Of a stretch of DNA of 64,000 bases, positions 1 through 56,250 are shown in pieces. Position 1 is the first letter of the stretch, and every line of letters begins with the position of its first letter. The DNA is from a virus. Below the pieces are notes generated by a model. That model was not told where the DNA came from. It was given only the letters and a program-made list of their open reading frames with translations, and searched no databases. The position numbers and the translations under genes are program-made. The stretch is taken from the IMG/VR virus record IMGVR_UViG_3300045256_000567; one strand, written 5' to 3'.

Positions 1-288
1 CTCCCTAGTTGACTTCACAACATTTTTGGTAACTTTATCAGTAAAATAATAATCATAAATATAATCAAAAGAAATTGAAAAATCACTTAAAGTCTTTGAT
101 AGATTTATTATAAAGAAAAAAATAGGCTCTATTGAAGTTTTTATATTTATTGGATACGCGCCAAAAAAATTATTTAAACCATATCTATAATATGCATTTA
201 AATAATCTTCGTCTTCCCTGGAAGATATATTTATTTGTACTATAGGGAAATCTTTTTTATAAAGAAAAAAGTCTGTAAATATTTGCAC
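1..288 (-). CDS. Hypothetical protein, 3'-truncated by window edge; GTG start, probably leaderless from the LE-junction promoter
   Basis: Open frame by manual translation from GTG at 288 to the window start (VQIFTDFFLYKKDFP...). TGTAAT -10 at 302-297, 8 nt upstream. Confidence 0.6.
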   Translation of the reverse strand, partial: MQIFTDFFLYKKDFPIVQINISSREDEDYLNAYYRYGLNNFFGAYPINIKTSIEPIFFFIINLSKTLSDFSISFDYIYDYYFTDKVTKNVVKSTRE

Positions 289-301
289 AGAAATATATTA
301 C

Positions 302-1533
302 AACATATGTTTGCAGAAAGCCTACGCTTTTAAGCGTAGGATGAATGCAAACAAACGCTTTGAATATGGTATAATGTTAGCAGGTAGTAATGATAAAGTC
401 TTTCAAATACCGACTGTATCCAACCAAGCCTCAGATAAAGGATTTAGAAAAAACCTTGTTTCTGTGTCGTCAACTGTACAATACTGCTTTGGAACAAAGA
501 AGGGAATTGTACAAAAACTACAAAAAGTCTATCACCTACTATGAACAAGATAAACAACTACCCAAAATAAAAACAGAGCGTCCAGAATACAAGAATGTAA
601 ATGCACAGGTTCTTCAGGATGTGCTGAAAAGGGTAGACAAAGCCTACCAAGGGTTTTTTAGGCGTATTAAAACGGGTGAAACACCTGGTTTTCCAAGGTT
701 CAAAGGTGAAAATAGGTACGATAGTTTCACCTTTCCTCAAGCAAGCTTGACAGGAATCAAGATTCAAGAAGGCAAAAACAGAGTTTTGGTTCATAGAATT
801 GGTTCTATAAAATGCAAGTTTCATAGACCGCTTAAAGGTCAAATAAAGACAGCTTCTATAAAAAGGGATGGTGATGAATGGTATGTCATTTTCACCTGTA
901 TCACAGAACCAAAGAAACTTCCTGAAAACCAAGATGCAGTTGGAATAGACCTTGGCACTAATCCAAACTTCCTAACCACCTCTAACAGTGAAATGGTTCC
1001 TGCTCCTAGGTATTTCAAGAATTCTGAAGATAGGCTTGCCAAAGCACAGAAAATAGTTTCAAAAAGAAAACCTGGTAGCAACAGAAGGAACAAGGCTAAG
1101 AAATTGGTTGCTAAAATCCACAAGAAAATAGCAAACCAAAGAAAGGATTTTCATCACAAGGTAGCAAAAGACTTGGTGAATAAATATGGAACCATAGTAC
1201 ACGAAGACCTAGATATAAAACAACTCGCCCAAACTAGAACAGCTAAAGGTGTCCTAGATGCAGGTTGGGCGCAATTCCTAGCAATACTTGCCTACAAAGC
1301 GGAAGAAGCTGGTAGTCAAGTAATAAAAGTAGATCCAAAATACACAAGCCAAGATTGTCCCGTTTGCGGTAACCGAGAAAAACATCCGCTTTGGGTACGT
1401 ACCTATACCTGCGCTAAATGCAACACAACCCTTCATCGGGATATTGCAGCAGCACAAAATATCTTGGCTAAGGCTCGGACGGAGCCTTCGCTAAATGCGA
1501 GAAGCCCAATTCTTTAGAATTGGGAGTCGTCAC
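302..1533 (+). mobile_element. IS200/IS605-family tnpB-only (IS1341-like) element, copy 1
   Basis: TTAC (298-301), 15 nt, AAAG, then LE hairpin CCTACGCTTTTAAGCGTAGG (321-340). RE is GAAG, hairpin CCCAATTCTTTAGAATTGGG (1505-1524), AGTCG, TCAC (1533). Same architecture as IS608 ends. Confidence 0.92.
390..1517 (+). CDS. tnpB: RNA-guided endonuclease TnpB (copy 1)
   Basis: N-terminal YRLYPT; RuvC motifs GIDLG, VHEDL, HRDIAAAQN; CPVC/CAKC zinc finger. Confidence 0.96.
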   Translation: MIKSFKYRLYPTKPQIKDLEKTLFLCRQLYNTALEQRRELYKNYKKSITYYEQDKQLPKIKTERPEYKNVNAQVLQDVLKRVDKAYQGFFRRIKTGETPGFPRFKGENRYDSFTFPQASLTGIKIQEGKNRVLVHRIGSIKCKFHRPLKGQIKTASIKRDGDEWYVIFTCITEPKKLPENQDAVGIDLGTNPNFLTTSNSEMVPAPRYFKNSEDRLAKAQKIVSKRKPGSNRRNKAKKLVAKIHKKIANQRKDFHHKVAKDLVNKYGTIVHEDLDIKQLAQTRTAKGVLDAGWAQFLAILAYKAEEAGSQVIKVDPKYTSQDCPVCGNREKHPLWVRTYTCAKCNTTLHRDIAAAQNILAKARTEPSLNARSPIL

Positions 1534-1574
1534 AATAGGTTTTTAGAAAGAGCATTTTTTAAGGTTTAAATCGT

Positions 1575-2375
1575 ATGTCAATAATAAAAAACTATTTTAC
1601 AAAAATTACGGAAACAAATTTTAATGAATTAGATTTTTTTAAATATCAACTTTCTCCTGAAAATTTAAAAAATAAAATATTTGAAGAGACAATTAAAAGA
1701 ATTAGCAACGATTCAATAAAATACTTTGATCTCCTAGATTGGAGTTTAGATAATTTTTCTATAGCAAAAGACAGTAATAATTGGACTATTTCTTCATACA
1801 TTAATAAAAACAAGCTTTCACTCCCACTTTTACCAACAAAAAATATTTTTTATTATGAATTGCTTCCTTTAACTACCGATAATGACTATATTTTTAATTT
1901 CATTTTTAATTCAAATGTTATAAACCCAACGTATATTTACGTATTTTTTGAAGAAAACGGTCAATATACAGATCAATTTTATTTAGATTCTAGCAGTTTT
2001 AACGATGCTGGAAATGGTCGTATTTTTATAAACGGACAGGTGTCTATTCCTAATCAAACTGGTAAATTAGGTCTTGTACTTTATAATTCATCTAAAACTA
2101 TGTTCAAAATTTATATTGATAAAATAGATAATAATTATTATTTTGTTCCCGACCTTAGTATAAATGTTTACAGCTATATAAATAATTTAAATCTTTTATA
2201 TAATTTATTTCCTATTTTTTATTATTCTAATTCTAACAATACATATTCGTATTCTTATACTATTCCGATTTCTTCCTCTTATGAAGTTTTATTAGCATCT
2301 ATACATTATAAAGATTCGTATATTCAAAAATATTATAAGACATATCTCCCGCCACAAAAAAATCCAAGTCAATAG
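1575..2375 (+). CDS. Hypothetical (possibly virion) protein
   Basis: 266-aa ORF, N/Y/F-rich, no recognised motif. Confidence 0.7.
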   Translation: MSIIKNYFTKITETNFNELDFFKYQLSPENLKNKIFEETIKRISNDSIKYFDLLDWSLDNFSIAKDSNNWTISSYINKNKLSLPLLPTKNIFYYELLPLTTDNDYIFNFIFNSNVINPTYIYVFFEENGQYTDQFYLDSSSFNDAGNGRIFINGQVSIPNQTGKLGLVLYNSSKTMFKIYIDKIDNNYYFVPDLSINVYSYINNLNLLYNLFPIFYYSNSNNTYSYSYTIPISSSYEVLLASIHYKDSYIQKYYKTYLPPQKNPSQ

Positions 2376-2378
2376 AAA

Positions 2379-2416
2379 GTGACTACTCCCAATTCTAAAG
2401 AAGTGGGAGTCGTCAC
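2379..2416. repeat. 38-bp RE-RE palindrome P1 between convergent genes; probable bidirectional terminator
   Basis: GTGACTACTCCCAATTCTAAAGAAGTGGGAGTCGTCAC; supplies the TGA stop of 2413..3510. Confidence 0.88.
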
Positions 2417-3510
2417 AAAAACCAAAAACTTTCTATGCTATGATTAATAAGATTATATACAAATATATACCAACAAGAAGTTGCAATTGAAGCAAATTCA
2501 TATATACCATAGTTTGTATCTTTTCCTATAGAGTATGGAAAAATATTCTCCTCCAGAAAATAAGATAATTTTTTAGATTCTTCATTAAATTCAATATTTT
2601 GTTTATATATAAAACTTTTTGCATAAAATGCCATGAAATAGCCACGGAACCAAATTTCAGTATTTGTGTTTGGATATCCTAAATTACTATTTAATTTTTT
2701 ATATATTATTGGAGATAGGTGACTTTTAAAGTCCCTTTCTCTAAAATATTCTTCTAAATATTTTATATTTGAATATAAATAATTTTTGTTTACTCCAATT
2801 TTATTCAAAAATATAGAACCCATAGTGTATGTATTTATATTTCCAGAATTAGAGTTTAAAATTTCTACCAATTTTTCTCCATCCCAAAAATTATTTAATA
2901 TAGAAGATTTCAAAGAATTGGCTTTCGAAAGATATGTAGGATTTTGTGTTACTGCATACACACTTTTTAAAGAAAAGTATGTGTATATGCTATCGTCCAA
3001 TAAATAAGAATTATACACATAAGTATTATCAAAAGAATTGTTTACATATACCCCATACCCTCCTCTTACCAAACCATTTTGTTGAATTTCTGAAACTAAG
3101 TAATCTGCTACAGATTTTATAAAATCTTTATTTTCGTTAGTTTGAAGTTCGTTAATAAAATTATAACTAACAGAAAGAGCTTCTAACATCCATGCAACAG
3201 ACCAATTCCTTATATATTCGTCTGAATGAAATCCGTAACAATAATAATAAAAGTTAAATGAATTTTTTGAATTTAAAAGTTTTTTAGACGTATTAAAAAT
3301 ATTAATGATATTATTTTTATAATAATCATTTTGGGTTACACGATATTCTGACACTAAAGAGAGTAATGTTGATGCTAAATTATTTAAATTAGTTTTAACT
3401 TCCTGAATGGAGCTTGTATTTATAGGAGGCGTAGGTATTGAGGGTGGAGGGGGCGGCGGGCTTCCGCAAATACTTGAACATTGTTGATATGTAATTATGT
3501 GAAGACTCAT
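2413..3510 (-). CDS. Hypothetical protein with CSSIC-polyPro N-terminus and possible (alpha/alpha)6 glycosidase-like domain
   Basis: 365 aa. NPTYLSKANSLKSSILNNFWDG and EIWFRG segments are reminiscent of six-hairpin glycosidase-like folds (weak). Confidence 0.6.
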   Translation of the reverse strand: MSLHIITYQQCSSICGSPPPPPPSIPTPPINTSSIQEVKTNLNNLASTLLSLVSEYRVTQNDYYKNNIINIFNTSKKLLNSKNSFNFYYYCYGFHSDEYIRNWSVAWMLEALSVSYNFINELQTNENKDFIKSVADYLVSEIQQNGLVRGGYGVYVNNSFDNTYVYNSYLLDDSIYTYFSLKSVYAVTQNPTYLSKANSLKSSILNNFWDGEKLVEILNSNSGNINTYTMGSIFLNKIGVNKNYLYSNIKYLEEYFRERDFKSHLSPIIYKKLNSNLGYPNTNTEIWFRGYFMAFYAKSFIYKQNIEFNEESKKLSYFLEENIFPYSIGKDTNYGIYEFASIATSCWYIFVYNLINHSIESFWFL

Positions 3511-3748
3511 AATTTTAAAAAAATTAGGCTTCTCGTATTTAGCGAAGACTTTGTCAGCGCCTTAGTCAAAACATTTTGTGCTGCTGCAATATTCCGATGA
3601 GGGGTTGTATTGCATTTGGTGCAGGTATTGGTTGTATACAGACGGTACTTTAAAGACTTGATCATTACTAAACTATATTGTATCATATTCAGAGTGCGCG
3701 TTTTCATTAACACTACACCTAAAGGTGTAAGCTTTCTGCAAACGTGTT
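3499..3748 (-). mobile_element. Internally deleted tnpB mini-element M1 (LE, fused tnpB 5'/3' ends, degenerate RE)
   Basis: TTAT at 3752-3749, LE hairpin, MIKSLKYRLY fused to TCTKCNTTPHRNIAAAQN, RE ending GAGTCTTCAC at 3499. Confidence 0.9.
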
Positions 3749-3794
3749 ATAATTTAGAAGGGAGGATGCAACGTTAAAACGCTGCTAACAACCA

Positions 3795-4259
3795 ATGAAG
3801 GTTACTTTATTAAAATTTTCAGATCCAAAAAAAGAGCAGGAATTCAATGAACAGATAGAAAATTATTCTGGTGCATTAATTGGATATTTTTTATCTTTTT
3901 ATTTAGTTGGTAGACTTTTAGAAAACGATAAATTAAAAGATAAAATTTATGAAAAATTTACATTTTTTAAAAGTAAAGAATTTTCAGAGTTTTTTTTAAA
4001 TTTAGAAGATATGATGCGTAAAGACGGCGAGGAAATTTTATCTACAGAGTCTTTAAAATCTATTAATCTTCTTACAAAAACAATAATCGGTACTTTTATA
4101 AATTTTTACCAAATTTTACTAAAAGAAAACGCGCAGATAAATTATTTAGATATAGATGAAAGTATATTGGAGTTACTTTCAGAGGGTGGAACGGACGGTG
4201 CGGAGGAGATGAAAGGAATTTTAGAAAAAATGACAATCACAAAGGCAATAGTTGCGTAG
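3795..4259 (+). CDS. Hypothetical protein
   Basis: 154-aa ORF downstream of the LE-junction TG-t-TATAAT (3745-3753). Confidence 0.75.
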   Translation: MKVTLLKFSDPKKEQEFNEQIENYSGALIGYFLSFYLVGRLLENDKLKDKIYEKFTFFKSKEFSEFFLNLEDMMRKDGEEILSTESLKSINLLTKTIIGTFINFYQILLKENAQINYLDIDESILELLSEGGTDGAEEMKGILEKMTITKAIVA

Positions 4260-4309
4260 AAAATTGTACCAGGCTTGATTTCACAGGATATAAATGGTAT
4301 ACTTTGGGC

Positions 4310-4579
4310 ATGCCTATTAAATACAACCCCTTCACAATGAAGTATGAGTTTGTTAACGAAGATTTTGAGCTTGTTCAGAACGAGTTTACTGGTCAGTATG
4401 AGTGGGGGCATCAAAAAGATTTATCTTATTCACCAAATCTCATGAAGTATTCTAAGAAAGGAAAAAAATTAGTAGAAAAATGGAATAATTTTACTAATAA
4501 ATATGAGTTTGTACCAGAAGATTGGGTTCTTAGACAGAATCCTTTTACCGGTAAGTATGAGTACGCCCCAAAAGATTAA
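4310..4579 (+). CDS. Small tandem-repeat protein (NPFTGKYE-type repeats)
   Basis: Five imperfect repeats. TTGATT-N17-TATACT promoter ends 6 nt before ATG 4310. Confidence 0.8.
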   Translation: MPIKYNPFTMKYEFVNEDFELVQNEFTGQYEWGHQKDLSYSPNLMKYSKKGKKLVEKWNNFTNKYEFVPEDWVLRQNPFTGKYEYAPKD

Positions 4580-4608
4580 CGAGCACAACAGAAATCCGTA
4601 CTCTCGCC

Positions 4609-4640
4609 GCCGCCTGTGAAGTTGACGCAGGCGGTTTTTT
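4609..4640 (+). terminator. Intrinsic terminator
   Basis: CCGCCTG...CAGGCGG stem followed by TTTTTT. Confidence 0.75.
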
Positions 4641-4701
4641 GTGGTACTGTATGTGGTACAGACACCGTCGCTGTGGCGAGTTAGATATGTGGAGGGGAAA
4701 A

Positions 4702-5286
4702 ATGGAAAAGATAAGTTTCGAATCAGATTTTGTTAAGGATTTAAATAACATAAAAAGTATCTTTAGAAATAAAATAGATGAAATACTAGACAACTATATT
4801 ATTTGTAATAACCATATTTTGTGCGTAGGAGCAGAAGAAATTTCTTTAAAACTAATAACAAATCCAAATATTTTAGCTATTTCTGATGATTCGCCCATAA
4901 TTATAACTAGGGCAAAATTTTATTTTGAAGATGATAACATATTTTTCTTAGATTCAGAGGAAAAATTTCCTCTGGAGAAATTATTTAAAAATACAGTTGT
5001 AAAAGAAATGTTTGAAGAAACAACAAATACTTTTAATTCTAAAGAATTTTATTTACAGAGATCTTTATATACTATATCTGTAAACGTATCTTCAGAAGAT
5101 TATAAAATGAATTTTTTAACTTTAGCCGATAAAGTTTTTTCTGGATCAAAATATGCTATTGAATTAGACTTGGCAGAAAAAAATGAAATTAAAGAAATAT
5201 CTATAGGAAATATATATGAAGAAATAAATCAAAAAAACATTTTTATTGTAAAATATAAAACACATCTAGAAGGTTTTAGTTTTTAG
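4702..5286 (+). CDS. Hypothetical protein
   Basis: Start reassigned to ATG 4702, after a GGAGGGG SD. Confidence 0.7.
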   Translation: MEKISFESDFVKDLNNIKSIFRNKIDEILDNYIICNNHILCVGAEEISLKLITNPNILAISDDSPIIITRAKFYFEDDNIFFLDSEEKFPLEKLFKNTVVKEMFEETTNTFNSKEFYLQRSLYTISVNVSSEDYKMNFLTLADKVFSGSKYAIELDLAEKNEIKEISIGNIYEEINQKNIFIVKYKTHLEGFSF

Positions 5287-5302
5287 AAAACTTAAAGTTC
5301 CT

Positions 5303-5836
5303 CTACAAAATTTTATATGTATAGTTAACAAAGTCATCAACTTTTTTTATTATATTATTCAAATCATCAACCTTTCCTTCAAATAATAAGTTATCATATT
5401 CATATAATTTTTGCAAAGTGTTTATTGAATATGCTATAACTGCAAGTATAAATGGCATATATAGTTTTTTATCTATTTCTAGAAATGAAAACATTTCTTC
5501 AATATCTTGTTCAAAGATAATATTTTCATTAATAGTAAATAGGTTTGCCCCTAAATAAAATAATTCATCTATTTTTATAGATTCTGCAAAAATAGATAAT
5601 TCCACAATTATCGATAATGTTTGTGCTTTTAATGACTCATATACTTTTACAGAGGGCCAATCTTCATAACTATTTTTTAATTTTTCTAAATAGACCTTTG
5701 CAAAATCTACATTTCTTGTATACAGGTTTTGTTTAATAAAAAGATGCATTTCAGAATTAAGGATATTATAATTTGGAGTTTTTGCTTCTATTGCTCCAAA
5801 TTTTTTCACCATATGCTTTAATGTTTCTTTAACCAT
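5303..5836 (-). CDS. Hypothetical protein
   Basis: 177-aa ORF coupled to the upstream gene. Confidence 0.7.
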   Translation of the reverse strand: MVKETLKHMVKKFGAIEAKTPNYNILNSEMHLFIKQNLYTRNVDFAKVYLEKLKNSYEDWPSVKVYESLKAQTLSIIVELSIFAESIKIDELFYLGANLFTINENIIFEQDIEEMFSFLEIDKKLYMPFILAVIAYSINTLQKLYEYDNLLFEGKVDDLNNIIKKVDDFVNYTYKIL

Positions 5837-6489
5837 CAGAAAATTTCCTCAAGAAAATAGTTTTTTTGAGCTAATGTGTTAATTAGCTTGTTATATTTTA
5901 CATCATACATATAAAATCCTCCTACAATATTTATATAATACGAAACTTCTGATAGATCATGTCTTATTGGATCAATGTATATGTGAATTTTTCTTTTTAT
6001 ATCTTTTGACGTTTTCTTTATAACCTCATCTAATGTTTCTTTTAAATTTCTTTTCCTTTGCTGAAACTCATGTTGTTTTATTTCTATATATACTAATAAA
6101 TATCCTTCTGACTCTACAAATATATTTCCTTGTAAACTTTTGAAAAATATTTTTGTATTTTCTCTATTTAAATTTTGAAAAATTTGTTTATCAATTTGTA
6201 TATCTAAAGAGATTAAATCTTTTTTATCATCAATATTTGTATTTTCTGAATCTATATTTTTATTAACATAAACATTTACATATCTTTTTTCTTCTGGTTT
6301 TGTAATCTTTAATTGAAATCTTTCATCTTTTAAAAAAACGTTAGATTCAAAAAATAAATTATTAAAAATTTTTTTTGCCATTAAATTGTATTGTTTGTAA
6401 AACCTTTTTAAACCTCTCTCTACACATTCTTCTTTAAATAAAATAATATCGGAAAAATTTAAAATAAGAGGTTTCTTATTTGATCCCAT
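5836..6489 (-). CDS. Hypothetical protein
   Basis: 217-aa ORF with GGAGG SD, downstream of an LE junction. Confidence 0.75.
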   Translation of the reverse strand: MGSNKKPLILNFSDIILFKEECVERGLKRFYKQYNLMAKKIFNNLFFESNVFLKDERFQLKITKPEEKRYVNVYVNKNIDSENTNIDDKKDLISLDIQIDKQIFQNLNRENTKIFFKSLQGNIFVESEGYLLVYIEIKQHEFQQRKRNLKETLDEVIKKTSKDIKRKIHIYIDPIRHDLSEVSYYINIVGGFYMYDVKYNKLINTLAQKNYFLEEIF

Positions 6490-6513
6490 TTTTTATTCCT
6501 CCAAAATTTTTAT

Positions 6514-6690
6514 AATACACGTTTGCAGAAAGCTTACACCTTTAGGTGTAGTGTTAATGAAAACGCGCACTCTGAATATGATACAATATAGTTTAGTAAT
6601 GATCAAGTCTTTCAAATACCGTCTGTATACAACCAATACCTGTGACAAAGCAGTGACGACTCCCAATTCTTTAGAATCTGGAGCCATCAC
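6514..6690 (+). mobile_element. Mini-element M2 (LE, tnpB stub, RE palindrome P2 at 6653-6690)
   Basis: TTAT at 6510-6513; LE nearly identical to M1; same CTGTATACAACCAATACCTG deletion junction; then GTGACGACTCCCAATTCTTTAGAATCTGGAGCCATCAC. Confidence 0.88.
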
Positions 6691-7057
6691 TTCTTAAAAA
6701 TTTATCTACCCCAAAAGAGTATTCTTTTTGTCTTTCTTCCTCATTTTTTATTTTATGCTGTACATAGGTGTCTACTATTACTGATATTTCATCTGTAAGA
6801 AATTTTAATTCAGATATTAAATCTCTATGCTCGCGAATTGACGTGGCATTATCAATTTTTTTTCTTATAGGATCTATAAAAAATAAATTTATATAATATA
6901 ATAAATCTTCTTCCACCTTCTCACTTCTTTTTTCTACTATATATGTATCAAAATAATATTCACATACATTAATTATTTTTTTCTCACACAAAAACTTGAT
7001 GTGATTAGAAATTGTAAAAATTATAGTTTTTATATCTGAATGATTAATTTCTAACAT
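6671..7057 (-). CDS. Hypothetical protein; C-terminus and stop encoded inside P2
   Basis: 128-aa ORF ending RSDGSRF* within the palindrome. Confidence 0.7.
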   Translation of the reverse strand: MLEINHSDIKTIIFTISNHIKFLCEKKIINVCEYYFDTYIVEKRSEKVEEDLLYYINLFFIDPIRKKIDNATSIREHRDLISELKFLTDEISVIVDTYVQHKIKNEEERQKEYSFGVDKFLRSDGSRF

Positions 7058-7853
7058 TTTTTAACCCCCTGCAAACTATGCTATAATTACATTCTAAACA
7101 ATTTGATCCTATTTTTTTAGGAAAATTGTTTGTTTTTATGGATTTTAATATTTCATTTATTGTTTTATTCAAAATTTTTCTCTCTGGAGAATTTTCATTA
7201 AATTTTCTAAAACTGGCAGAAAAGTTTTTAAAATTAAGCTCATAAAAGGTTGGATAATAATCTAATGAATTTAGTTTCTTTAACATTGAGGAATAAAAAT
7301 AAAATTGCAAAGACATTATAGAGCTATTAGATGTTGCTTTATCTGTATTTTTCAAATCAAAAATCACTAATTTATTGGTTTTTTTATCTAACATCACAAT
7401 ATCTATAAATCCTAAAAGAGTGATATTGTTTTTTAACTTTATTTCTAACTTTTTTTCTATTTCAACCACGTTAAATCTATCATTAATTATGGGTACTTTT
7501 TCTTTTAGTTTATTTAAAAAGTTTTTTATTTCATCTGAATTTTTAGACAATATGTAGTAATCAATATTTTCTTTACCTAAATTTACTTTTTTAGAGTTGA
7601 TAAATTTATTAAACTCATTAAATGAGTTTTCTACATTTGGGTAATCAAACAGAACCCATTTGTCCTCAATAAACTCTGCAAAAACAGAATAAAAAAGGTA
7701 ATGATATATGCTAGAAATACCTTTTGAGTTTATACTAGAATTTGTCTTTTTTATGTTACTGGCTTTCAAATAAGAATTATATGGACAAAATATGTATCCT
7801 TTAACTACAGATGGAGAAATAACAAAACCATTAAACGATATATTCTGAATCAT
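7044..7853 (-). CDS. PD-(D/E)XK RecB/Cas4-like nuclease
   Basis: GFIDIV...IFDLK motif, QFYFY, N-terminal CP and C-terminal CLECNYSIVC. Start uncertain. Confidence 0.8.
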   Translation of the reverse strand: MIQNISFNGFVISPSVVKGYIFCPYNSYLKASNIKKTNSSINSKGISSIYHYLFYSVFAEFIEDKWVLFDYPNVENSFNEFNKFINSKKVNLGKENIDYYILSKNSDEIKNFLNKLKEKVPIINDRFNVVEIEKKLEIKLKNNITLLGFIDIVMLDKKTNKLVIFDLKNTDKATSNSSIMSLQFYFYSSMLKKLNSLDYYPTFYELNFKNFSASFRKFNENSPERKILNKTINEILKSIKTNNFPKKIGSNCLECNYSIVCRGLKNVRN

Positions 7854-9450
7854 CAGCAGTCTCCTCAATAGTTTCTTCATCTTCAGTATTTTCTATAGCT
7901 TTTACTGGTTTTATACCAAGTCTATTGGCAATTATTGAGTTTATATTAGTTTCTCCCGCTAACAATTTCTCTAAATCATATTTTTCTGGTTGTATTTCTA
8001 AAAGCAGGCTATATGATTTTTCGTCTAAGGTATCTGTTTCACCTAATATATATTCTAATATAATTTTAGCCGACTTAGAATTAAATTTATATTCTTTTAT
8101 ATTTTTTATATCTTTTGCATTATTTGGATCATTTTTTAATAAATACACCAACGCTTTCAATAATCTCCTTTCTTTGGGAGATATATAATCTATATCTTTA
8201 AGAATTTCGTATGATGCAACATTTGATTCTTTAGCTAACGACAACTCTACTCTTTTTACAAGATAACCTATTTGATATTTTGATCTTTCACACACCCTAA
8301 TCATTAAATTATACGCATGTGAGTTATTTTTGTACATTTTTAAATATTTAAATACTTTCTTTATCAGTTCTTCTCTAAGAATATCTATTGAGGTATTTTT
8401 AGGAAACTGTTTTTGAATAGATTTTAAATGGTGATTTATATAAAAATCATAAATATTTTTATATTTAATATTGTTCAAAAAATCATCTAAAGACTGAATT
8501 TTTAAAACTTCATCTATATCTTTTTGATACGTATGAAAGCCAAATACAGGATTAAAACTTGCCCTATTTGACGATATTATTGTTTTTGCAAAATCTGCAT
8601 ATGACAACAGTCCAGGTTCATCTTGATCCATCAAAAATCTAACAGAACCAAACTTATTAAGAAGATTTATTTGTTCTATAGACAAATTTGTTCCTAAAAT
8701 AGAAACAGCGGGGATATTCCTGCTAAGTAAAGCAAGCGCATCGTATACGCCTTCTACTACAAATACATAATCTATTTTCTCTTTAAATGCTAAATAGTAT
8801 GCTTCATCATAAAACATTAAATATTCTTTTTTAGGAAATCTATTAAACAAGTATTTTGGTAACCTTTCTCCAGTACTTCTCCCTACAAAACCTACTAATT
8901 TTTTATTAAAAAATATAGGAAAAATTAGTCTACCACCAAAGGAAAACTTATAGTCTCCGTTTGCGTGTCTGTTTATAATACCTAGGTTTGTTAAAAAATT
9001 TTGAAAATCTTCATTTTTTATATTTTCTAGAAGTGCTGAAGTTTTGTCGAAAGGTATATAATGGGCTGGGTAGTCTATATAAACACCTAGTCTCTCAAAA
9101 TTATATTTTTTTGTAAAATCATCGTCTGAATATTGTTTTAAAAGAGAATAAAAATTTTCTAAAGAGTTATTTTCTTTTCTGTATCGTGTGTTGTTTAAAA
9201 GCTCTTTATATCCATACTTTTCTACTAATACATTATTAACTTCTTCTAACGGAATACTTTCTATATATGATACAAACTGATATACATTCCCCCCTCTTTT
9301 ACAACCAAAACAATAAAATACATTTAAATCAGTGTTTATATGAAAAGACGGAGTATCTTCATCATGAAAAGGACAAAGACCATAGTATTGATTTTTACTT
9401 CTGCTTCTCAACAGTGTAAATTTAGAGGCTACCTCATATAAACTCACCAT
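7831..9450 (-). CDS. dnaG: DnaG-type DNA primase
   Basis: CPFHDEDTPS...CFGC zinc domain; TOPRIM VVEGVYDAL and DQDEPG. Confidence 0.95.
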   Translation of the reverse strand: MVSLYEVASKFTLLRSRSKNQYYGLCPFHDEDTPSFHINTDLNVFYCFGCKRGGNVYQFVSYIESIPLEEVNNVLVEKYGYKELLNNTRYRKENNSLENFYSLLKQYSDDDFTKKYNFERLGVYIDYPAHYIPFDKTSALLENIKNEDFQNFLTNLGIINRHANGDYKFSFGGRLIFPIFFNKKLVGFVGRSTGERLPKYLFNRFPKKEYLMFYDEAYYLAFKEKIDYVFVVEGVYDALALLSRNIPAVSILGTNLSIEQINLLNKFGSVRFLMDQDEPGLLSYADFAKTIISSNRASFNPVFGFHTYQKDIDEVLKIQSLDDFLNNIKYKNIYDFYINHHLKSIQKQFPKNTSIDILREELIKKVFKYLKMYKNNSHAYNLMIRVCERSKYQIGYLVKRVELSLAKESNVASYEILKDIDYISPKERRLLKALVYLLKNDPNNAKDIKNIKEYKFNSKSAKIILEYILGETDTLDEKSYSLLLEIQPEKYDLEKLLAGETNINSIIANRLGIKPVKAIENTEDEETIEETADDSEYIV

Positions 9451-9481
9451 ATTAGCATGGTATAACACCCCCGCTCAAAAT

Positions 9482-10126
9482 TCAACTTTGTGTAAAGGAG
9501 AACTCAAATCTATCAAATGCAATCTCTTCAGAAACTTCTTTTGGTGACACATAGCACCGTTCACATCTAGGTTCATATGTTATGTTTACCTCAAACTGTT
9601 TTGGAATGAAAGGCACAGGAATACCGTCTAATAATCCTTGATTAAACATAGCTTCCCTTCCACATATACTACACTCCGATTTAAACCTTTCTTTATAGTC
9701 AGCGATACTAATCAAATACTCAAACTGTGGATATGTTTTTCCAATATAATCTTTCTCTAAACTTAAAAACCCAACAAGCGGATTATCTAATCTGTCCCTT
9801 ACTAAAAAAAATAAATGTTTCAATTCTTCTACAGCAAATAAGTGAGATTTAACTATATGAATAACTCTCAATTTTCTTGCCTCACCTATTTTCAGTTTTA
9901 TAAAATCTTTAAAAGTAAACACTATATCTGTTTTAATTTTTTTATTTTTATAAAAAATTATTCCGTTTTCAAAATCAGGATCGTTTTCTGGAGATATGAT
10001 AATATGGCGCAAATTAAAATCTTTTGGATCTTTTTTTATAGGAAAATATTCAAATGATACAGAATTATAAATTAATTCTCTTTTTCCCGATTCTACTGTT
10101 CCATAAAATACTGAAATTACGGCCAT
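9482..10126 (-). CDS. tdk: Thymidine kinase-like protein (divergent)
   Basis: GTVESGK P-loop, CSIC...YEPRCERC zinc/lasso region; canonical DEAQF absent. Confidence 0.7.
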   Translation of the reverse strand: MAVISVFYGTVESGKRELIYNSVSFEYFPIKKDPKDFNLRHIIISPENDPDFENGIIFYKNKKIKTDIVFTFKDFIKLKIGEARKLRVIHIVKSHLFAVEELKHLFFLVRDRLDNPLVGFLSLEKDYIGKTYPQFEYLISIADYKERFKSECSICGREAMFNQGLLDGIPVPFIPKQFEVNITYEPRCERCYVSPKEVSEEIAFDRFEFSFTQS

Positions 10127-10171
10127 AAGAAAATAATACAATACATTTGCATATTTTTCAACAAAAATATA

Positions 10172-10879
10172 TCAATCTTCTTGGTACATAGATTTAAACA
10201 GACTTTCTTTAACTTTAATTAAATCAATTCCTTTGCTGTTTATATAAAAATAAATTTCCCCTTTGTTCTTAACAACTTTATGCACAAGATTCCTTTCTAC
10301 GGCTTCGTTTAATGATAAATATACATCCGCTGAAAAAGTTTTTCCCGGTTCCCAGGAAAATTTATCAGATATTTGTATATCTTTTAAAATATATGACTCC
10401 AATATTTCTTTTAATTTTTCATAAAGCTGTTGAGTATTAATCATTGCATCTTTAATGTTGGTAAATTCTGGCATGATAATTCTAACATCATGAATCATAA
10501 AATAAGAAAAAGGTGTGGACAGTCTATTTTCCTTCGGAAAGGATAAATAAATATATACACCACTACTTGCAATAAGAGAATCAGCAACTATAAAAATTTT
10601 TCTATCAAACATTCTTACGAAGCTAATAAATCTTAACGCGTCGTCTACATTACCACCTGATGTTGAAAAAAATAAAACTATAGGAATTGAGTAAAACCTT
10701 AAATTCGAAATGTATTCATAATCAAGTAGAGAAGCGTCCAAATTTGATAGTGAATTAATTAAATCATTAATATTTTCCTCGTTTATGTCTGAAGAAAAAT
10801 AAATTTCGTTTGGAAGCTTAATAACAGAGTTTGCATTATTGCCTTGAGATTCAAAAGACCCAATCTTCATTTTCTTCAT
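10172..10879 (-). CDS. clpP: ClpP-like protease
   Basis: STSGGNV, IASSG and FMIHD motifs. Confidence 0.85.
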   Translation of the reverse strand: MKKMKIGSFESQGNNANSVIKLPNEIYFSSDINEENINDLINSLSNLDASLLDYEYISNLRFYSIPIVLFFSTSGGNVDDALRFISFVRMFDRKIFIVADSLIASSGVYIYLSFPKENRLSTPFSYFMIHDVRIIMPEFTNIKDAMINTQQLYEKLKEILESYILKDIQISDKFSWEPGKTFSADVYLSLNEAVERNLVHKVVKNKGEIYFYINSKGIDLIKVKESLFKSMYQED

Positions 10880-11738
10880 AATACTCTTTCTCCTTAAGAA
10901 TAGTTTGTATATATTTAATTTTTCCGTTATTATCTACTGTTTTATTGAAATTGGGCCAACAAAGTTTTGTAAAAGCGCAATATGAACATTGCCAAGGAAG
11001 TGTTCTTTCAATATAAAATTCTGTTTCTACTTCATTATATACGTATGGTCTTTCTGGAAGTTCGCCAGTTTTAAATCCGTGAATTGCGGACTTAAAACGT
11101 TTTATAGATTCGTCTACAACTGATTGGTTGTAAACTACGGGAACTATTTTTCTATGGCTGGTTCCTTTATTATAAACCCAAAGATATGCTTCGCGTAAAC
11201 CAGTAGCATACATATAAACATTAAGCTGCGCGATGTAGTCTTTGGGAATTTCCCTATCAAATTCTTTCCAAGCTCTTTCGTTTACAGTTTTTATATCTAA
11301 TAAAACATCTTTATTTTTTAGTTTTAAAATCCCATCTATATGTCCAAAAATCTTAAACCCGTCTACTTCAATATACACTTCTTTCTCTTGATCCACAAGT
11401 TCGTTTACTTCAGATATTATTAATCTTTCAACATCATGTACGATATGACCTAGCTGAAAAATACTAATTGCTCTTGGGCTTAATGGTTCCTTTTTCTCAG
11501 GAAAAAGCATAGAGTATGATATTGCTCTAGGGCATTTTCCAGAAGAAGAAAATCTCAACATGCTTTTTAAAGAATCTTCTGGATTATACTTTAAGTTTAT
11601 AGGAATGTTTATTTCTCCTCCATTTTTATATATATGAGACAAATACTCTTCTACAGAATTTAAGACATCACTTATGCTGTTTAAATTTGGAGGTTTATTA
11701 TATTTTTTCTTATTAGATAAGATTTCCTCTATTGACAT
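10851..11738 (-). CDS. PD-(D/E)XK RecB/Cas4-like exonuclease
   Basis: CPR, GHIVH, GHIDG...LLDIKT, QLNVYM, CSYCAFTKLC. Confidence 0.88.
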   Translation of the reverse strand: MSIEEILSNKKKYNKPPNLNSISDVLNSVEEYLSHIYKNGGEINIPINLKYNPEDSLKSMLRFSSSGKCPRAISYSMLFPEKKEPLSPRAISIFQLGHIVHDVERLIISEVNELVDQEKEVYIEVDGFKIFGHIDGILKLKNKDVLLDIKTVNERAWKEFDREIPKDYIAQLNVYMYATGLREAYLWVYNKGTSHRKIVPVVYNQSVVDESIKRFKSAIHGFKTGELPERPYVYNEVETEFYIERTLPWQCSYCAFTKLCWPNFNKTVDNNGKIKYIQTILKEKEYYEENEDWVF

Positions 11739-11790
11739 ACATATATAATAACATCAAATAAATGTTTTGGGAAGACCCCCCCTAATTTAC

Positions 11791-12033
11791 AGAACAGTTT
11801 GCAGAAAGCCTACACCTAAAGGTGTAGGATGAATGCAAAAATTGAAATTCTATGGTATAATAAACTTGTGCAAAAGAAGCACACCAAATCCTACAAAGCT
11901 GAAAATGCTGGTAGGTACTTGAATTATAAGATTCAAGGTAATCATCGGGAAAATAAGAAAATACCGATAATGGCTTGGACGGAGCCTTCGTTAATTACGA
12001 GAAGCCCAATTCTTTAGAATTGGGAGTCGTCAC
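11791..12033 (+). mobile_element. Non-coding mini-element M3 (LE, promoter, omegaRNA, RE)
   Basis: TTAC at 11787-11790, LE hairpin CCTACACCTAAAGGTGTAGG, RE ending TCAC at 12033. Confidence 0.9.
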
Positions 12034-12053
12034 AAAATAAAAATAAGTATGCC
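11868..12053 (+). ncRNA. Stand-alone TnpB omegaRNA 1 (scaffold ~11868-12033 plus guide AAAATAAAAATAAGTATGCC)
   Basis: TG-g-TATAAT at 11853-11861; seven successive hairpins; 3' 62 nt identical to the RE of tnpB copy 2; identical copy at 56079-56256. Confidence 0.75.
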
Positions 12054-12612
12054 TACTTATGTTATTTCTTATACAAGTTGTTCAAGCATTTGCACGCCTC
12101 CACCTCCGCCACCACCTGTTCCAGAAAGCTTTGAAATTTTATTAAATAAAGGTACTATTTATCTTAAAAATATCCCTCAGTCTCCACAAAAACAAATAAT
12201 AGAAGTGTTTTTTGAGTACCTAGATAAATATTTAGTAAAAAATATAGATACACAATCTGAAAACAATTATGTTATTTCTACAAAAATTGAAAACGCAAAT
12301 ATTTATTATTATGGTAACGTATCTATTACTTTTTACGAAGATATAAGTGATCTATGTAATTTTTCTATAAATAAACATTATATAAATCAAGATGACATAT
12401 ATCCATCATATATTAGTGTAGAAATACAATCAATAGATAATGATGCTGAACTGGGATATATTTATATATTATATTCAAGTAATACTAAATCTGAAAAATA
12501 TATTATTCATATACAAAATAATATCTCAGAGTTAATTAATAAAAGTATACTTATATATGATGAAGATGCTGATAATATAGATATAAGCGCATTCTGTGTA
12601 AATACAATTTAA
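12049..12612 (+). CDS. Hypothetical protein with CSSIC-polyPro N-terminus
   Basis: MPTYVISYTSCSSICTPPPPPPP, similar to the N-terminus of 2413..3510. Confidence 0.75.
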   Translation: MPTYVISYTSCSSICTPPPPPPPVPESFEILLNKGTIYLKNIPQSPQKQIIEVFFEYLDKYLVKNIDTQSENNYVISTKIENANIYYYGNVSITFYEDISDLCNFSINKHYINQDDIYPSYISVEIQSIDNDAELGYIYILYSSNTKSEKYIIHIQNNISELINKSILIYDEDADNIDISAFCVNTI

Positions 12613-12622
12613 AGGAGCTTTT

Positions 12623-13438
12623 GTGGAAAATATACAAAAATTAAAAAATTTAAAAAATTCTATAAGAAATTTTTATGAAAAAAACGGATTATTACCGCAA
12701 GAAATAATAAATATAACTCAAACAAATGATTTAGAAAAATCTTTAAGTATACTAGAAAATAAAATAAAAACAGACAATTTAATATTAAATATATTTTCTG
12801 GATTGTACGAACAATTATTTAGCACAAATCTTTCATCTAACCAAAACACTACAAAATTTATTCATAGTGATAATAATAAATTTTATAGAATTGATGAAAT
12901 ACAAACTAATAATTTAGACGATTCTATATTTTACAATATTACCATTAATGTTAGTTTTACTAATTTTTCCATTAATGACATAGATTATTTATCATTAGGT
13001 ATAAGTTTTGATGGCAAGAATTTTTACTCAAAATTATTTTTTAACAGCCCTCAAAATTTACTAAACATTTCTGCTGGACCCAAAGAAAATAGATTACAAT
13101 CTATCGTATGTGTAATCAAAGAGAATATTTCAAGTTTACCAATTATTTTTTTAAATAATAATAGATCTTTTACATATTTTTCTAATGAAGTACCATTATT
13201 TTCATATAATGGAAATATAAAAAACAACTACTCCCAAGTACAATTAGATCAAAATAATCAGCCATTAAATATATTAATGGGCGTTTTAGTAAACACAAAT
13301 AAAAATACTAATATTTTGCTTTCTTCTGATCTTAAAAAAACATCCTCTTCAGATTTAGAAAATAGAATTTCAATTAGTGTATATAAAGTTTTTAAATCCT
13401 TCTCTAATAGAATACGTGTCAATTCCGCAATCATTTAA
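12623..13438 (+). CDS. Hypothetical (possibly virion) protein
   Basis: 271-aa ORF, AAGGAG SD. Confidence 0.7.
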   Translation: MENIQKLKNLKNSIRNFYEKNGLLPQEIINITQTNDLEKSLSILENKIKTDNLILNIFSGLYEQLFSTNLSSNQNTTKFIHSDNNKFYRIDEIQTNNLDDSIFYNITINVSFTNFSINDIDYLSLGISFDGKNFYSKLFFNSPQNLLNISAGPKENRLQSIVCVIKENISSLPIIFLNNNRSFTYFSNEVPLFSYNGNIKNNYSQVQLDQNNQPLNILMGVLVNTNKNTNILLSSDLKKTSSSDLENRISISVYKVFKSFSNRIRVNSAII

Positions 13439-14845
13439 ATTTTCTATTCTGTCTATCTTTAGTTTGAAGATATCTACAAAAATTGATAGAGAGTCTTTTA
13501 GAATATTTGTAAAGTCTTTAGGAAGGCTATATCGAAAATAACTTTTAAGATCTGATAATTCAAATACTGTTCCTAAGGAAATCTTTTCTTCTCCATAATT
13601 AATCCATCTTCCTTTAGCTATTAATACTAATACATTTTTAGATTTTAAGTACTTAAATACCTTAGAAATGTCTCTTTTGCTTATACCGCGCTTACTTAGC
13701 GCATTATACCCCATTACAAATCTCTTACCAAAAATAACAGATTTATATACGATATCAGACAAAATTGTTTCAATAGATTTTTTTGATGCATCTATTTCTT
13801 CTTTTTTTATTGATGATATAATTTGTATCGCTTTCTGATAATTTTCGTTGGTAACAAATAAAAATTTAAAAGAATACTCTGGTAAATATTCATAAAGAGA
13901 TGAGAATGAAATTTTTTCTCCTTTTTTTATTCTTGAAAAAGTTCTAGATATAACGTTTACTCTACTTTTAAATTCTTCATCTTCACTTATTAAAATCTTA
14001 ACAATATCCAAAAACTTAGAAAAACTAACTTTCATTGCAGCCGCCAGGCCAGAAAATGAATAAATTATATTATTTCTATTTCCTTTATAGTAGTATTTCT
14101 TAAGATCATTTGCTATTTCAAGTAAAAAATTTTCTCTTTGCTCTTCTGTAACAGGAATTAATTCCAATTTTTCATAGGATTCATTATCTATAGATAAATT
14201 AATTCTAGACAAATACTGAACAGAATGCTGCATTAATGGAATTCTTTTCAAAACATTGTCTAAGGTGCTTTCGTTATTTGCATATCTAAAAAACTTTTGG
14301 GTAAAAAAATTAAGTTTCTTCTTAAATGATACTTTTTCATTTTTATGATAGAAATTGTAATTAACTACCCCACCATATCCATAGTAATCAATGCTATCAC
14401 TAAAAATACATATTTGCTTCCCAGGACTACTTGGAACAAACTCAACCTTACAATTAAAATAATTTTCAGCAAGCTTTGCCATTATATCAGAAAAAGCATG
14501 CATTTTAGAAAATAGAACCCTATCTGTAAATGGAATGTATATATGAGCCCTACCACCAAGCGATCTATTTGAATAAGAATTTATATTAAAAATATCGTGT
14601 AAAGCACGCTGAAACATAACAACACGTTGAGGATCATATGCACAATCAACATCTAAAATAGACAAATAAGAGAACCCGCCTTCACATATAGAAGAAGAGC
14701 TTAAAACAACCGATCCAGAAATATAGGAAAACATAAGCCTACTACTATACTCAGTAGATCTAAAAGATTTAAAGGAAGACGGCGAATACACCGCCCTATC
14801 ACCTTTTTTATACCCTAATCTAGACTCTATAAAAGAAAAAGACAC
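13370..14845 (-). CDS. AEP-superfamily primase/replication initiator-like protein with PriCT-like and probable wHTH domains
   Basis: ILDVD (motif I), SLGGRAHIY (motif II), GNRNNIIY (PriCT-like); GGAGG SD. Confidence 0.7.
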   Translation of the reverse strand: MSFSFIESRLGYKKGDRAVYSPSSFKSFRSTEYSSRLMFSYISGSVVLSSSSICEGGFSYLSILDVDCAYDPQRVVMFQRALHDIFNINSYSNRSLGGRAHIYIPFTDRVLFSKMHAFSDIMAKLAENYFNCKVEFVPSSPGKQICIFSDSIDYYGYGGVVNYNFYHKNEKVSFKKKLNFFTQKFFRYANNESTLDNVLKRIPLMQHSVQYLSRINLSIDNESYEKLELIPVTEEQRENFLLEIANDLKKYYYKGNRNNIIYSFSGLAAAMKVSFSKFLDIVKILISEDEEFKSRVNVISRTFSRIKKGEKISFSSLYEYLPEYSFKFLFVTNENYQKAIQIISSIKKEEIDASKKSIETILSDIVYKSVIFGKRFVMGYNALSKRGISKRDISKVFKYLKSKNVLVLIAKGRWINYGEEKISLGTVFELSDLKSYFRYSLPKDFTNILKDSLSIFVDIFKLKIDRIENLNDCGIDTYSIREGFKNFIYTN

Positions 14846-15007
14846 TACTATCCTCCAAATTTAAATACACCGCACCTATCAACGTACACTGAGCACATAC
14901 TATAGAAATCTCCCAACTACATATGTCACCGCAGACACACTTTCCCCCAGACCGCTTCAGCTATAACACACCCGCGCCAATGTTGGTACACTATATATAC
15001 TGAAAAA
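14846..15007. other. Candidate replication origin region
   Basis: Non-coding, C-rich on + strand, repeated ACCGC/ACCCGC words, local strand-skew switch, flanked by the AEP gene and near polA. Confidence 0.4.
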
Positions 15008-15445
15008 CTAAAGGTACGACTTGCATAACCCCTTTAGTACTTCCTTAGTAAACTGTGTGTACGTAAGACTCAGTAGTTCCCCGTTTTCGTAGAAGTGTAT
15101 CCGCTTGAACCTTAGCTCTTTTAGCACAGTTGCACAGTATATGCATGGCTTTGTGTTTTTTAGCTCCGCCTTTCTGTACCCCACTATGTATATGTCAGAC
15201 GGTATGAATTTTTTCTTTTTGGCTTTGTAGTAAAAGTCTAGTTCCGCGTGTAGGGATAGAAATTCGGGGTAATTGTGCTTTACTTGTACGCTTGTTATGT
15301 ACTTATTGTGGCCTACTATTATTTCTTTTTTATTAATTCCTATGCAGTACATTGTTATTTTACCGTCGCTTCTTTTCGGTTTTAGTTTTTTTACCGTTGG
15401 CGGTAGTTCTTCTTTTTTACTATAAAACGTTTCAGGCTCCTCCAT
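15008..15445 (-). CDS. Cytidine/dCMP deaminase-family protein
   Basis: HAE...PCIYC zinc-deaminase motif. Confidence 0.75.
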   Translation of the reverse strand: MEEPETFYSKKEELPPTVKKLKPKRSDGKITMYCIGINKKEIIVGHNKYITSVQVKHNYPEFLSLHAELDFYYKAKKKKFIPSDIYIVGYRKAELKNTKPCIYCATVLKELRFKRIHFYENGELLSLTYTQFTKEVLKGLCKSYL

Positions 15446-15504
15446 TTCGGCTCCCCCGTTGCATAATATTAGCATTTCTTTTGTTTTTGTGGTACCATTT
15501 GATT

Positions 15505-17607: not shown

Positions 17608-17677
17608 AGAATGCCCTTGACAAAAATTTAAATTTATTTTATACTCTATGTGTAAAGGGTACTATTGGTGATTAATT

Positions 17678-18232: not shown

Positions 18233-18274
18233 AATTAAGACTCCCCGAAACAAAAAAACGGGGAGTCTTAATTT
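18232..18274. terminator. Bidirectional terminator
   Basis: 16-bp perfect inverted repeat AAATTAAGACTCCCCG/CGGGGAGTCTTAATTT between convergent genes. Confidence 0.85.
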
Positions 18275-18283
18275 CTTTTAAGG

Positions 18284-19516: not shown

Positions 19517-19567
19517 AAATTTATAATACCTCCTTTAAGTATTATACTTTTATATTTGTAATATTTT

Positions 19568-19861: not shown

Positions 19862-19886
19862 ATGCTCCTCTATCTGTATTTTACTA

Positions 19887-20235: not shown

Positions 20236-20311
20236 GGGACGTTAGCTCAGAGGTGAGAGCAGTCGGCTCATAACCGATTGGTCGCAGGTTCAAATCCTGC
20301 ACGTCCCACCA
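20236..20311 (+). tRNA. tRNA with CAT anticodon, probably tRNA-Ile2 (lysidine) rather than Met
   Basis: Full cloverleaf GGGACGT/ACGTCCC, GTCGG-CTCATAA-CCGAT, TTCAAAT, encoded CCA; TTGACA-N17-TATCAT promoter upstream. Confidence 0.92.
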
Positions 20312-20440: not shown

Positions 20441-20454
20441 ATAATAAAAACAAG

Positions 20455-29703: not shown

Positions 29704-29732
29704 ATAATGTTAATGTTAATAGGAGCCAAAAA

Positions 29733-56244: not shown

Positions 56245-56250
56245 AAGTTT

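Follow-up and report, generated by a model that had tools for sequence, protein, structure and literature searches.

Left ends of tnpB-only IS200/IS605 elements form extended -10 sequences with their target at promoter positions in a phage of the phiYS40 group

The stretch of DNA analysed here (the window) comprises 64,000 nt of the IMG/VR virus record IMGVR_UViG_3300045256_000567, drawn from a 153,046-bp contig of the Joint Genome Institute (JGI), and it contains dispersed repeats that are, judged by their sequence, tnpB-only insertion sequences (ISs) of the IS200/IS605 family with IS608-like ends, accompanied by gene-less mini-elements (minis) and short stubs of the left end (LE). The window has 28.8% G+C and encodes matches to phage families for a portal protein, DNA polymerase, primase, ribonucleotide reductase and tail fibre; the portal protein is ~50% identical to those of the Thermus phages phiYS40, TMA and YS40_Isch, most genes have phiYS40 homologues in a partly rearranged order, and by gene content the window is that of an AT-rich phage of the phiYS40 group. 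The host is probably Thermus or a relative, since the nearest TnpB proteins outside the phage (63-68% identity) belong to Thermus, Meiothermus and Calidithermus. The sequencing runs that carry the window sequence are hot-spring and microbial-mat metagenomes (8 DNA runs listed). The comparison included contig A, a second JGI contig of the same phage (loci L036, L037, L123 and L125; 46 kb read), which shares no DNA with the window except the IS, and L127, a Logan contig covering part of the structural region, through which alone the region at 64-120 kb was sampled. Window, contig A and L127 together represent 123 kb of this phage with 25 LE junctions (22 in the window and contig A, three in L127). 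Two further references were phiYS40 itself (loci L120-L122) and an IS-free relative (JGI sample 3300020567, loci L128, L129 and L130; 70-87% amino-acid identity), in the 43 kb of which, all compared, neither the LE nor the right-end (RE) motif was found.

Three tnpB-only copies of 1.2 kb lie in the window, at 298-1533 (+ strand), 28476-29703 (- strand) and 50781 to ~52078 (- strand), and are 90-92% identical in DNA. Their TnpB has OrfB_IS605, Cas12f1-like TNB and HTH_OrfB_IS605 domains (Pfam E-values 5e-26, 9e-25 and 7e-14). In copy 1, for example, the target TTAC (298-301) is followed by the LE from 302, tnpB at 390-1517 and an RE that ends ...GTCGTCAC at 1533. Gene-less derivatives occupy 3499-3748, 6514-6690, 11791-12033, 20334-20440 and 56079-56312, and LE stubs are located at 7069-7087, 34823-34845, 50752-50780 and 55261-55285. 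The LE consists of TTAY, a tip of 6-8 nt, TTTGCAGAAA(G/A), the hairpin CCTACRC...GYGTAGG and then ATGAATGCAAA, and the RE consists of GAAG, the hairpin CCCAATTC...GAATTGGG and then AGTCGTCAC. Both ends fold as subterminal single-strand hairpins (-9.6 to -15.7 kcal/mol; z -3.2 to -6.5 against shuffled controls), are unrelated to each other in sequence and form no terminal inverted repeats. The copies diverge immediately after ...GTCGTCAC, which gives a precise boundary without target-site duplication.

Insertion occurs 3' of TTAT or TTAC, and all 22 junctions of the window and contig A read TTAY|A.... In IS608, the left cleavage word CL TTAC goes with the guide GL AAAG and the right word CR TCAA with GR GAAT, the guides lying directly 5' of the hairpin foot (PMC5934647); the corresponding pairs here are TTAC/TTAT with AAAG/AAAA on the left and TCAC with GAAG on the right. 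The LE guide, 4 nt long and immediately 5' of the hairpin, changes together with the target, AAAG being found in 5/5 TTAC junctions and AAAA in 9 of the 13 readable TTAT junctions (Fisher p = 0.015), and the combination of TTAC with AAAA was never seen; the remaining 4/13 TTAT junctions would pair via T.G wobbles. This covariation, read at window 302-356, 11791-11840, 20392-20440 and 29650-29703 and at the contig A loci L036, L037, L123 and L125, fixes the LE boundary between TTAY and the next A. By their ends and TnpB the elements are non-autonomous members of the family, requiring a transposase in trans, since no TnpA (Y1 HUH) was found by tblastn with host-type TnpA queries in the 123 kb, where the only matches were translated host-type LE. 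Searches for the origin of the elements returned 35 chance matches to an LE 17-mer in IMG/VR, none with a hairpin, no match to the LE hairpin pattern in the 185,579 species genomes searched for the LE's bacterial source, and only host-type copies with at most 66% identity in a TnpB scan of JGI metagenome contigs.

The junction 9-mer is made up of 4 nt of LE tip, the 4-nt target TTAT and 1 nt of flank. Read outward, the tip A-R-C-A is TGyT, which together with TTAT and a flanking A spells TGyTATAAT. An initial annotation of this DNA had proposed that the LE inserts into -10 boxes and rebuilds an extended -10 promoter, pointing out that TTAT is contained in the reverse complement of TATAAT and that many LE copies begin A-N-C-A. 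TTAT is indeed the complement of TATAAT bases 2-5, and A-R-C-A is the consensus in about two thirds of the copies, in which the tip thus provides TG, the others being single-base variants (e.g., AGAACAG vs AGCACAG); T at -12 is provided by the LE in every copy. The motifs that had been quoted are all present, namely TGTTATAAT at 3745-3753 and 20437-20445 on the + strand, TGCTATAAT at 50760-50752, 55269-55261 and 56259-56251 on the - strand, TATAAT at 29703-29708 and TGTTGTAAT at 305-297. Within the window, TGNTATAAT occurs 17 times against 8.17 +/- 2.76 expected, a count that 0/100 shuffles reach; 11 of the 17 are in IS-derived DNA (these five noted sites, the stubs at 7079 and 34837, and internal promoters at 367, 11853, 51936 and 51980) and the other six are at about chance level. 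Exact TGNTATAAT, and with it the sequence of an extended -10, stands at 3745, 20437, 50752, 55261, 7079 and 34837 as well as at contig A and L127 junctions.

The junction sequence is not random with respect to the flank. At 15 of the 19 independent TTAT junctions (window, contig A and L127) the flanking base is the A that completes TATAAT, compared with a background frequency of A before TTAT of 0.30 genome-wide (p = 1.5e-5) and 0.36 in intergenic DNA (p = 1.5e-4), an enrichment for which the initial annotation had suggested looking. The extra A could alternatively belong to a longer target, ATTAT or more, recognised by the transposase or by TnpB-guided homing, and some members of the family do use 5-nt targets, such as TTGAT in ISDra2. 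This is very improbable, given that only 1/5 TTAC junctions has A at that position and that the four TTAT junctions lacking it include two that face no gene start and two that lie 18-19 nt before Shine-Dalgarno-led genes; a longer target would also leave unexplained the distance of 6-11 nt to the start codon.

This distance was found at 9/19 TTAT junctions, which stand 6-11 nt before the start codon of an open reading frame (ORF) of at least 60 aa, as against 2/109 native intergenic TTAT in the window (p ~2e-11, with a null that uses a crude gene map of the longest ORF per locus). Start codons had been placed 7-9 nt after several junctions, and they lie there: the spacers are 7 nt for ATG 50744 and ATG 55253, 9 nt for TTG 20455 (the DUF444 gene start; 20437-20457) and 8 nt for GTG 288, with 6-11 nt at contig A and L127 sites. 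GTG 288, whose ORF is open to the window edge, follows the outward junction of IS copy 1 on the - strand and can be read either with TGTTGTAAT at 305-297 or with TAATAT and a 6-nt spacer. TTAC junctions set G|TAA beside the flank, and both TAATAT and the TAAAAT before ATG 55360 consist wholly of target and flank and have 6-nt spacers. Leaderless-type spacing was not found at three starts. At 3745-3753 (LE tip 3745-3748, complement of TTAT 3749-3752, flanking T 3753) the next start is ATG 3795 of a 154-aa gene, 41 nt downstream; at 34868 the distance is 22 nt; and the Erf homologue (ATG 29733), next to the TG-less junction TATAAT of IS copy 2 (29703-29708), is Shine-Dalgarno-led, with an AGGAG site. 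Since a crude scan for TANNNT at a fixed distance from longest-ORF starts gave no sharp peak, it is not claimed that most genes here are leaderless.

Several of these junctions belong to LE stubs rather than to whole elements. The stub at 34823-34845 (- strand, with TTAT and A) reads TGCTATAAT on the + strand (34837-34845) in front of ATG 34868, the first gene of the portal operon. The 24-nt stub at 50752-50780 (+ strand) ends CCTACGA, abuts the RE of IS copy 3 and presents its - strand TGCTATAAT to ATG 50744. At 55261-55350 a composite fills a divergent intergenic region: one side is an LE stub with TGCTATAAT facing ATG 55253, and the other is an inverted LE whose target TTAC (55347-55350) lies beside the TAAAAT of ATG 55360. 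The reading of 50752 and 55261 as LE junctions thus stands for the motif, and what carries it are stubs of the LE, 19-24 nt long, which end at the hairpin foot and directly adjoin other parts of the IS. A fourth stub, 14 nt plus TTAT and A at 7069-7087 (- strand), reads TGCTATAAT on the + strand (7079-7087) within the 3' end of ORF 7044-7880 (PDDEXK family), of which it forms the last ~12 codons; it is located where the IS-free relative has an extra 519-aa gene.

Stubs of this kind might be ordinary promoters of a class native to the phage, in which CTGCAAA, 5-8 nt and TGYTATAAT form the phage's own motif, perhaps late and read by a phage factor, that the LE resembles or has captured. The motif does precede structural operons with no other IS part nearby (window 34822-34845 and the protease gene of L127), and CTGCAAA is kept in nearly all stubs. 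Such a class is nevertheless quite improbable. The motif, including its LE-tip part, is absent from phiYS40 and from the 43 kb of the IS-free relative, where the orthologous genes use other -10 boxes; the same bases hold the IS608-type guide that covaries with the target; the spacing from CTGCAAA to the hexamer varies over the 5-8 nt; and the stubs tend to stop at the hairpin foot (CCTA/CCTAC) or to abut inverted REs, as broken LEs would.

The state of the sites before insertion was rebuilt by precise in-silico excision. Removal of the minimal mini at 20334-20440 (- strand; RE palindrome plus LE hairpin) gives TTTGTTAAA|ATAAT ahead of the DUF444 gene and restores TGTTAAAAT, and the IS-free relative has a native TGCTAAAAT box at exactly this place, 9 nt before the DUF444 start, reading TTTTGCTAAAAT, a 9-nt spacer and GTG. 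Because the excised site agrees with the relative at 13/14 positions across the joint (the expected number of such 14-mers with no more than one mismatch is 0.55 in a window), the mini is placed by this alignment inside a native extended -10 box, TGyTAAAAT. The new TGTTATAAT lies 3 bp downstream of the native box, with a spacer of 9 nt to the start, which is conserved between the two phages (MKRIEDIYKKKIN...). A similar case is the 306-aa gene of L127 (MPDK...), for which the relative has TATAAT, 11 nt and ATG and this phage has ...CTGTGCT|ATAAT, 11 nt and the same ATG, with alignable sequence between the two phages beginning at the hexamer. Excision of IS 28476-29703 leaves GAGGT|ATAAT, a native TATAAT ~24 nt before the Shine-Dalgarno-led Erf gene, excision of the mini 3499-3748 leaves two candidates (AATTAT|ATAAT and TTAAGAA|ATAAT), and other excised sites give AATAAT, GATAAT or CATAAT. 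TG at -15/-14 was found in none of the reconstructed sites.

The orthologous starts point the same way. In phiYS40 the boxes are TGTGATAAT, 12 nt and ATG for DUF444, TAAACT, 8 nt and ATG for the homologue of the 55360 gene, TAAAAT, 9 nt and ATG for the homologue of the 50744 gene, and a TTGACA/-10 promoter ahead of Erf. The relative has short -10-type boxes before the protease, a portal-operon gene, the 154-aa gene and Erf, with spacers too diverged for base-by-base reconstruction. All comparable starts in the two phages have a -10-like hexamer near the start codon, or a Shine-Dalgarno sequence with a promoter just upstream. Location of the elements in native -10 boxes is demonstrated at two sites and, from these comparisons, likely at more. 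Upstream of DUF444 the relative also has two tRNA genes and a TTGACA/TGCTATGCT promoter (L130 8614-8970), and the window has one tRNA (20236-20308) and then the mini.

Taken together, the elements probably land in -10 boxes, where the LE junction would form an extended -10 that keeps the downstream gene expressed. The intergenic regions of the phage offer little beyond -10-only promoters 6-12 nt before start codons, and tolerated insertions would therefore end in -10 boxes, between -12 and -11, antisense and with the LE towards the gene; entry in this orientation alone would follow from the absence of TTAY in TATAAT and its presence in the complement. Insertion would displace everything upstream of -11, and the LE tip would provide TGyT to give TGyT|ATAAT, a consensus extended -10 for which no -35 is needed. 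The host sigma-A RNA polymerase would most likely start at the junction, so that the downstream gene stays expressed, often from a leaderless mRNA, and LE stubs could persist as working promoters once the rest of the element is lost. Most phiYS40 middle and late mRNAs are reported to be leaderless (PMC3594737, citing Sevostyanova et al. 2007), a TANNNT box a few bp before the ORF suffices for transcription of leaderless genes in Deinococcus-Thermus without a -35 (PMC12340547), and some promoters of the Thermus phage Lalka27a are TGx-extended -10 boxes that have no -35 and whose transcripts start 6 nt downstream (bioRxiv 10.64898/2026.04.20.719267). By analogy with these systems, a junction supplying T(-12) and TG(-15/-14) may be what such a polymerase needs. 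Transcription from the junctions, and selection for it, are what we infer from the sequences. The initial annotation had held that insertion replaces the promoter it splits, which agrees with the native -10 boxes at the DUF444 and 306-aa sites and the native TATAAT at 28476-29703; at roughly half of the sites that could be rebuilt, the former hexamer was xATAAT, so that there the LE would improve or create a box rather than restore one.

A number of observations weigh against this interpretation. TG is no commoner at gene-facing junctions (10/16) than at others (3/5) and looks like a subfamily trait that is not site-selected, and the gene-facing junctions at 29703, 11787, 6510 and 55350 lack it. 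Before insertion, xATAAT stood in place of TATAAT at about half of the sites that could be rebuilt. In four or five copies the LE does not point at a gene start (30499, 37702 and 41664 in contig A; 7086 in the window; 56252), and the rule cannot be extended to all copies: a contig A mini with a TTAC target is inserted after codon 10 of a small gene, two contig A copies are sense-oriented in a gene string with the LE towards gene 3' ends (junctions TATAAA and TATAAG), and the TGCTATAAT of stub 7069-7087 points antisense inside a coding region. The starts 41 nt from 3745 and 22 nt from 34837 have no clear ribosome-binding site, and the sequence upstream of the 154-aa gene (3795) could not be aligned with the relative; the pre-insertion state at 3745 is ambiguous, as the DNA there appears, judged by the gene order of the relative, to have been inverted by the minis at its two ends. 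The start-codon comparison is weakened by its crude gene map, and no RNA run was among the listed runs carrying the window sequence of this uncultured phage. The misfit copies are expected if any TTAY accepts insertion and selection retains harmless copies; they argue against exclusive promoter homing, not against junction promoters where an LE meets a gene start.

Some of these points would also fit a functionless by-product, in which the TGyT tip serves transposition, sites fall in -10 boxes since intergenic TTAY is mostly there and insertions in genes are purged, and the genes are transcribed from elsewhere, by upstream read-through or from the element's internal promoter on the other side. 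The equal frequency of TG at gene-facing and other junctions, the junctions without TG and the copies that face no gene are in keeping with it, and read-through is conceivable at the many sites within co-directional gene strings. We regard the by-product as unlikely, since it leaves the strong enrichment of the flanking base that completes TATAAT (15/19 vs 0.30) and the leaderless spacing (9/19 vs 2/109) unaccounted for, 13-24 nt LE stubs survive exactly at the -10 before the protease-capsid and portal operons with the rest of the element lost, and a polymerase reading through would have to get past two strong hairpins and an antisense element of 0.1-1.2 kb.

A broader reading can be put forward tentatively, as possible but doubtful when taken as a whole. 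The element would have adapted to promoter parasitism: a single-base guide change from AAAG to AAAA would shift its target from TTAC to TTAT, which is complementary to the core of the -10, and the tip would have evolved to TGyT, each insertion swapping a host promoter for a -35-independent one. The phage would have kept bare stubs as promoters of the portal, protease-capsid and other operons, and occasional use of an upstream TTAT would carry a cassette of promoter and start codon to new genes. Two contig A IS copies share 30 nt past the LE boundary, consisting of TATAAT, 11 nt and then ATGGCAAATAATG (contig A 8790-8830 and 15460-15500; L037 ~3120-3160 and ~9790-9830), and the unrelated 1116-aa and 238-aa genes consequently begin with the same promoter and MANN residues. 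The end of the shared stretch at an upstream TTAT suggests that this flank may have been carried along by cleavage there.

Two of the gene-less elements have a non-coding body of guide-RNA type. The cassette at 11787-12033 (+ strand) has a TTAC target, an internal promoter TGGTATAAT at 11853-11861 and a TGTAAA junction without TG, and the second, at 56079-56316 (- strand), is 99% identical to 11850-12033 and has its true LE junction at TTAC 56313-56316. The identity extends over 184 nt from the TATAAT box to the RE end (11850-12033 and 56079-56262), and the flanks differ beyond TCAC. The TGCTATAAT at 56259-56251, which had been read as a junction with flanking DNA, matches the internal promoter position of the sister cassette and is fused to an LE-like half hairpin, so that it is no independent junction of element and flank. 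From their sequences, both cassettes resemble independent TnpB guide-RNA genes, each with a promoter of its own.

The mini at 3499-3748 (- strand) consists of a degenerate RE, an internal TGATACAAT promoter and an LE hairpin, and is 96% complementary to 6517-6649 in the mini at 6510-6690 (+ strand; target TTAT 6510-6513), which has the junction hexamer TATAAA and faces a Shine-Dalgarno-led gene (ATG 6489). The RE of the latter (6671-6690) provides the last codons and stop of a 124-aa gene (6671-7057). The minis 3499-3748 and 6514-6690 are thus inverted repeats of 96% identity, and they enclose 2.8 kb of DNA that looks, on sequence, to have been inverted by recombination between them, because the 124-aa and 154-aa genes are adjacent and co-directional in the IS-free relative.

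IS copy 3 (50781-52078, - strand; tnpB 50797-51924) appears to be nested in an older LE and has a different, host-type left end. This other left end, GAGGGGGTGTGGGGGAGCTATAAT-TCCCCGC...hairpin, is shared by copy 3 (51950-52140) and a copy on a 2.4-kb contig (L038 1-254), and also occurs in host contigs of Thermus type, where it precedes tnpB; one and the same element body is thus combined with two sorts of left end in the phage. In a recurrent layout, the outer end of an inverted RE runs straight into 12-24 nt of LE stub (contig A 43917-43975, L125 ~18330-18390; window 50752-50792; L036 16279-16349), and the predicted TnpB guide just beyond this RE is LE sequence. For the origin of the stubs, nested insertion into the LE hairpin loop and cleavage at an internal CYTAC word were considered as candidates, and neither is preferred.

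In relation to phiYS40 (L120-L122), IS, mini and stub sites mostly coincide with breaks in gene order, and IS 28476-29703 is a simple insertion (- strand) between the DnaB and Erf homologues. In contigs of four runs over window 1-20000, the depth of the IS is 5-10x that of unique DNA and further junction ends occur; no empty-site joint was found in them, because the contigs break at repeats. No relative of the 1041-aa neighbour gene was found in IMG/VR, and a search there for a nearer relative of 48165-49652 returned only phiYS40-type phages.

If the junctions fire, a transposon would have its target word within the -10 box and its end would regenerate that box in a stronger, -35-independent form. 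The presence of about two dozen insertions in so compact a phage genome would then be accounted for, as would their uniform antisense orientation with the left end pointing at a gene. It would also provide a natural case of IS608-type guide retargeting (AAAG/TTAC to AAAA/TTAT), so far mainly engineered, and simple portable promoters for thermophile genetics. For annotation, promoter motifs that recur before many operons in such phages may be transposon ends and should be treated with caution.

Several known systems resemble the elements described here in part. With IS608 and the IS200/IS605 family, including tnpB-only IS1341-type elements, they share subterminal hairpins instead of terminal inverted repeats and a TnpB that contains the OrfB_IS605 and TNB domains; as in IS608, they insert 3' of TTAC with no duplication of the target, carry the AAAG guide directly 5' of the LE hairpin and have an RE cleavage word and guide of like form (TCAC/GAAG here, TCAA/GAAT in IS608). 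They differ in that no tnpA was found in 123 kb of phage DNA, a natural AAAA guide goes with TTAT, the elements reside in a phage, and LE tip and target spell an outward extended -10, a combination for which a limited literature search found no description in an IS200/IS605 end. The leaderless promoters of phiYS40 and Deinococcus-Thermus likewise have TANNNT/TATAAT 6-11 nt before the start, no -35 and sometimes a TG extension, whereas many boxes here are chimeras of transposon end and target.

Promoters formed by an IS end and target DNA are well known in other families, as are promoter-bearing miniature inverted-repeat transposable elements (MITEs). IS1, IS2, IS257 and ISAba1 give rise to hybrid or outward promoters, the classical cases supplying a -35 or a whole promoter and activating silent genes by chance. 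Here too, element end and adjacent target DNA together form a predicted promoter for the neighbouring gene, known so far as a composite sequence, but the target word belongs to the -10 itself, TG and T(-12) come from the end, and the promoter just split would be replaced by the junction. Palindrome-associated transposable elements (PATEs) and MITEs of IS200/IS605, and promoter-bearing MITEs such as the Correia elements of Neisseria, are gene-less, consist of ends only and may carry outward promoter parts between genes. The minis are similarly gene-less derivatives that keep the ends; unlike these, some carry a guide-RNA-type body with its own promoter, and bare LE stubs of 13-24 nt stand at promoter positions. 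IStrons, in which a group I intron is fused to an IS200/IS605 element and splices out of coding sequence at the RNA level, are conceptually alike as element-borne devices that lessen the damage of insertion; the rescue proposed here would instead be transcriptional and at the DNA junction, and an Rfam scan gave two tRNAs only and no intron. What appears to be new, within the limited literature search, is the combination of a target word in the -10 box, an LE tip that rebuilds the extended box, a natural guide variant with TTAT, and LE stubs before phage operons.

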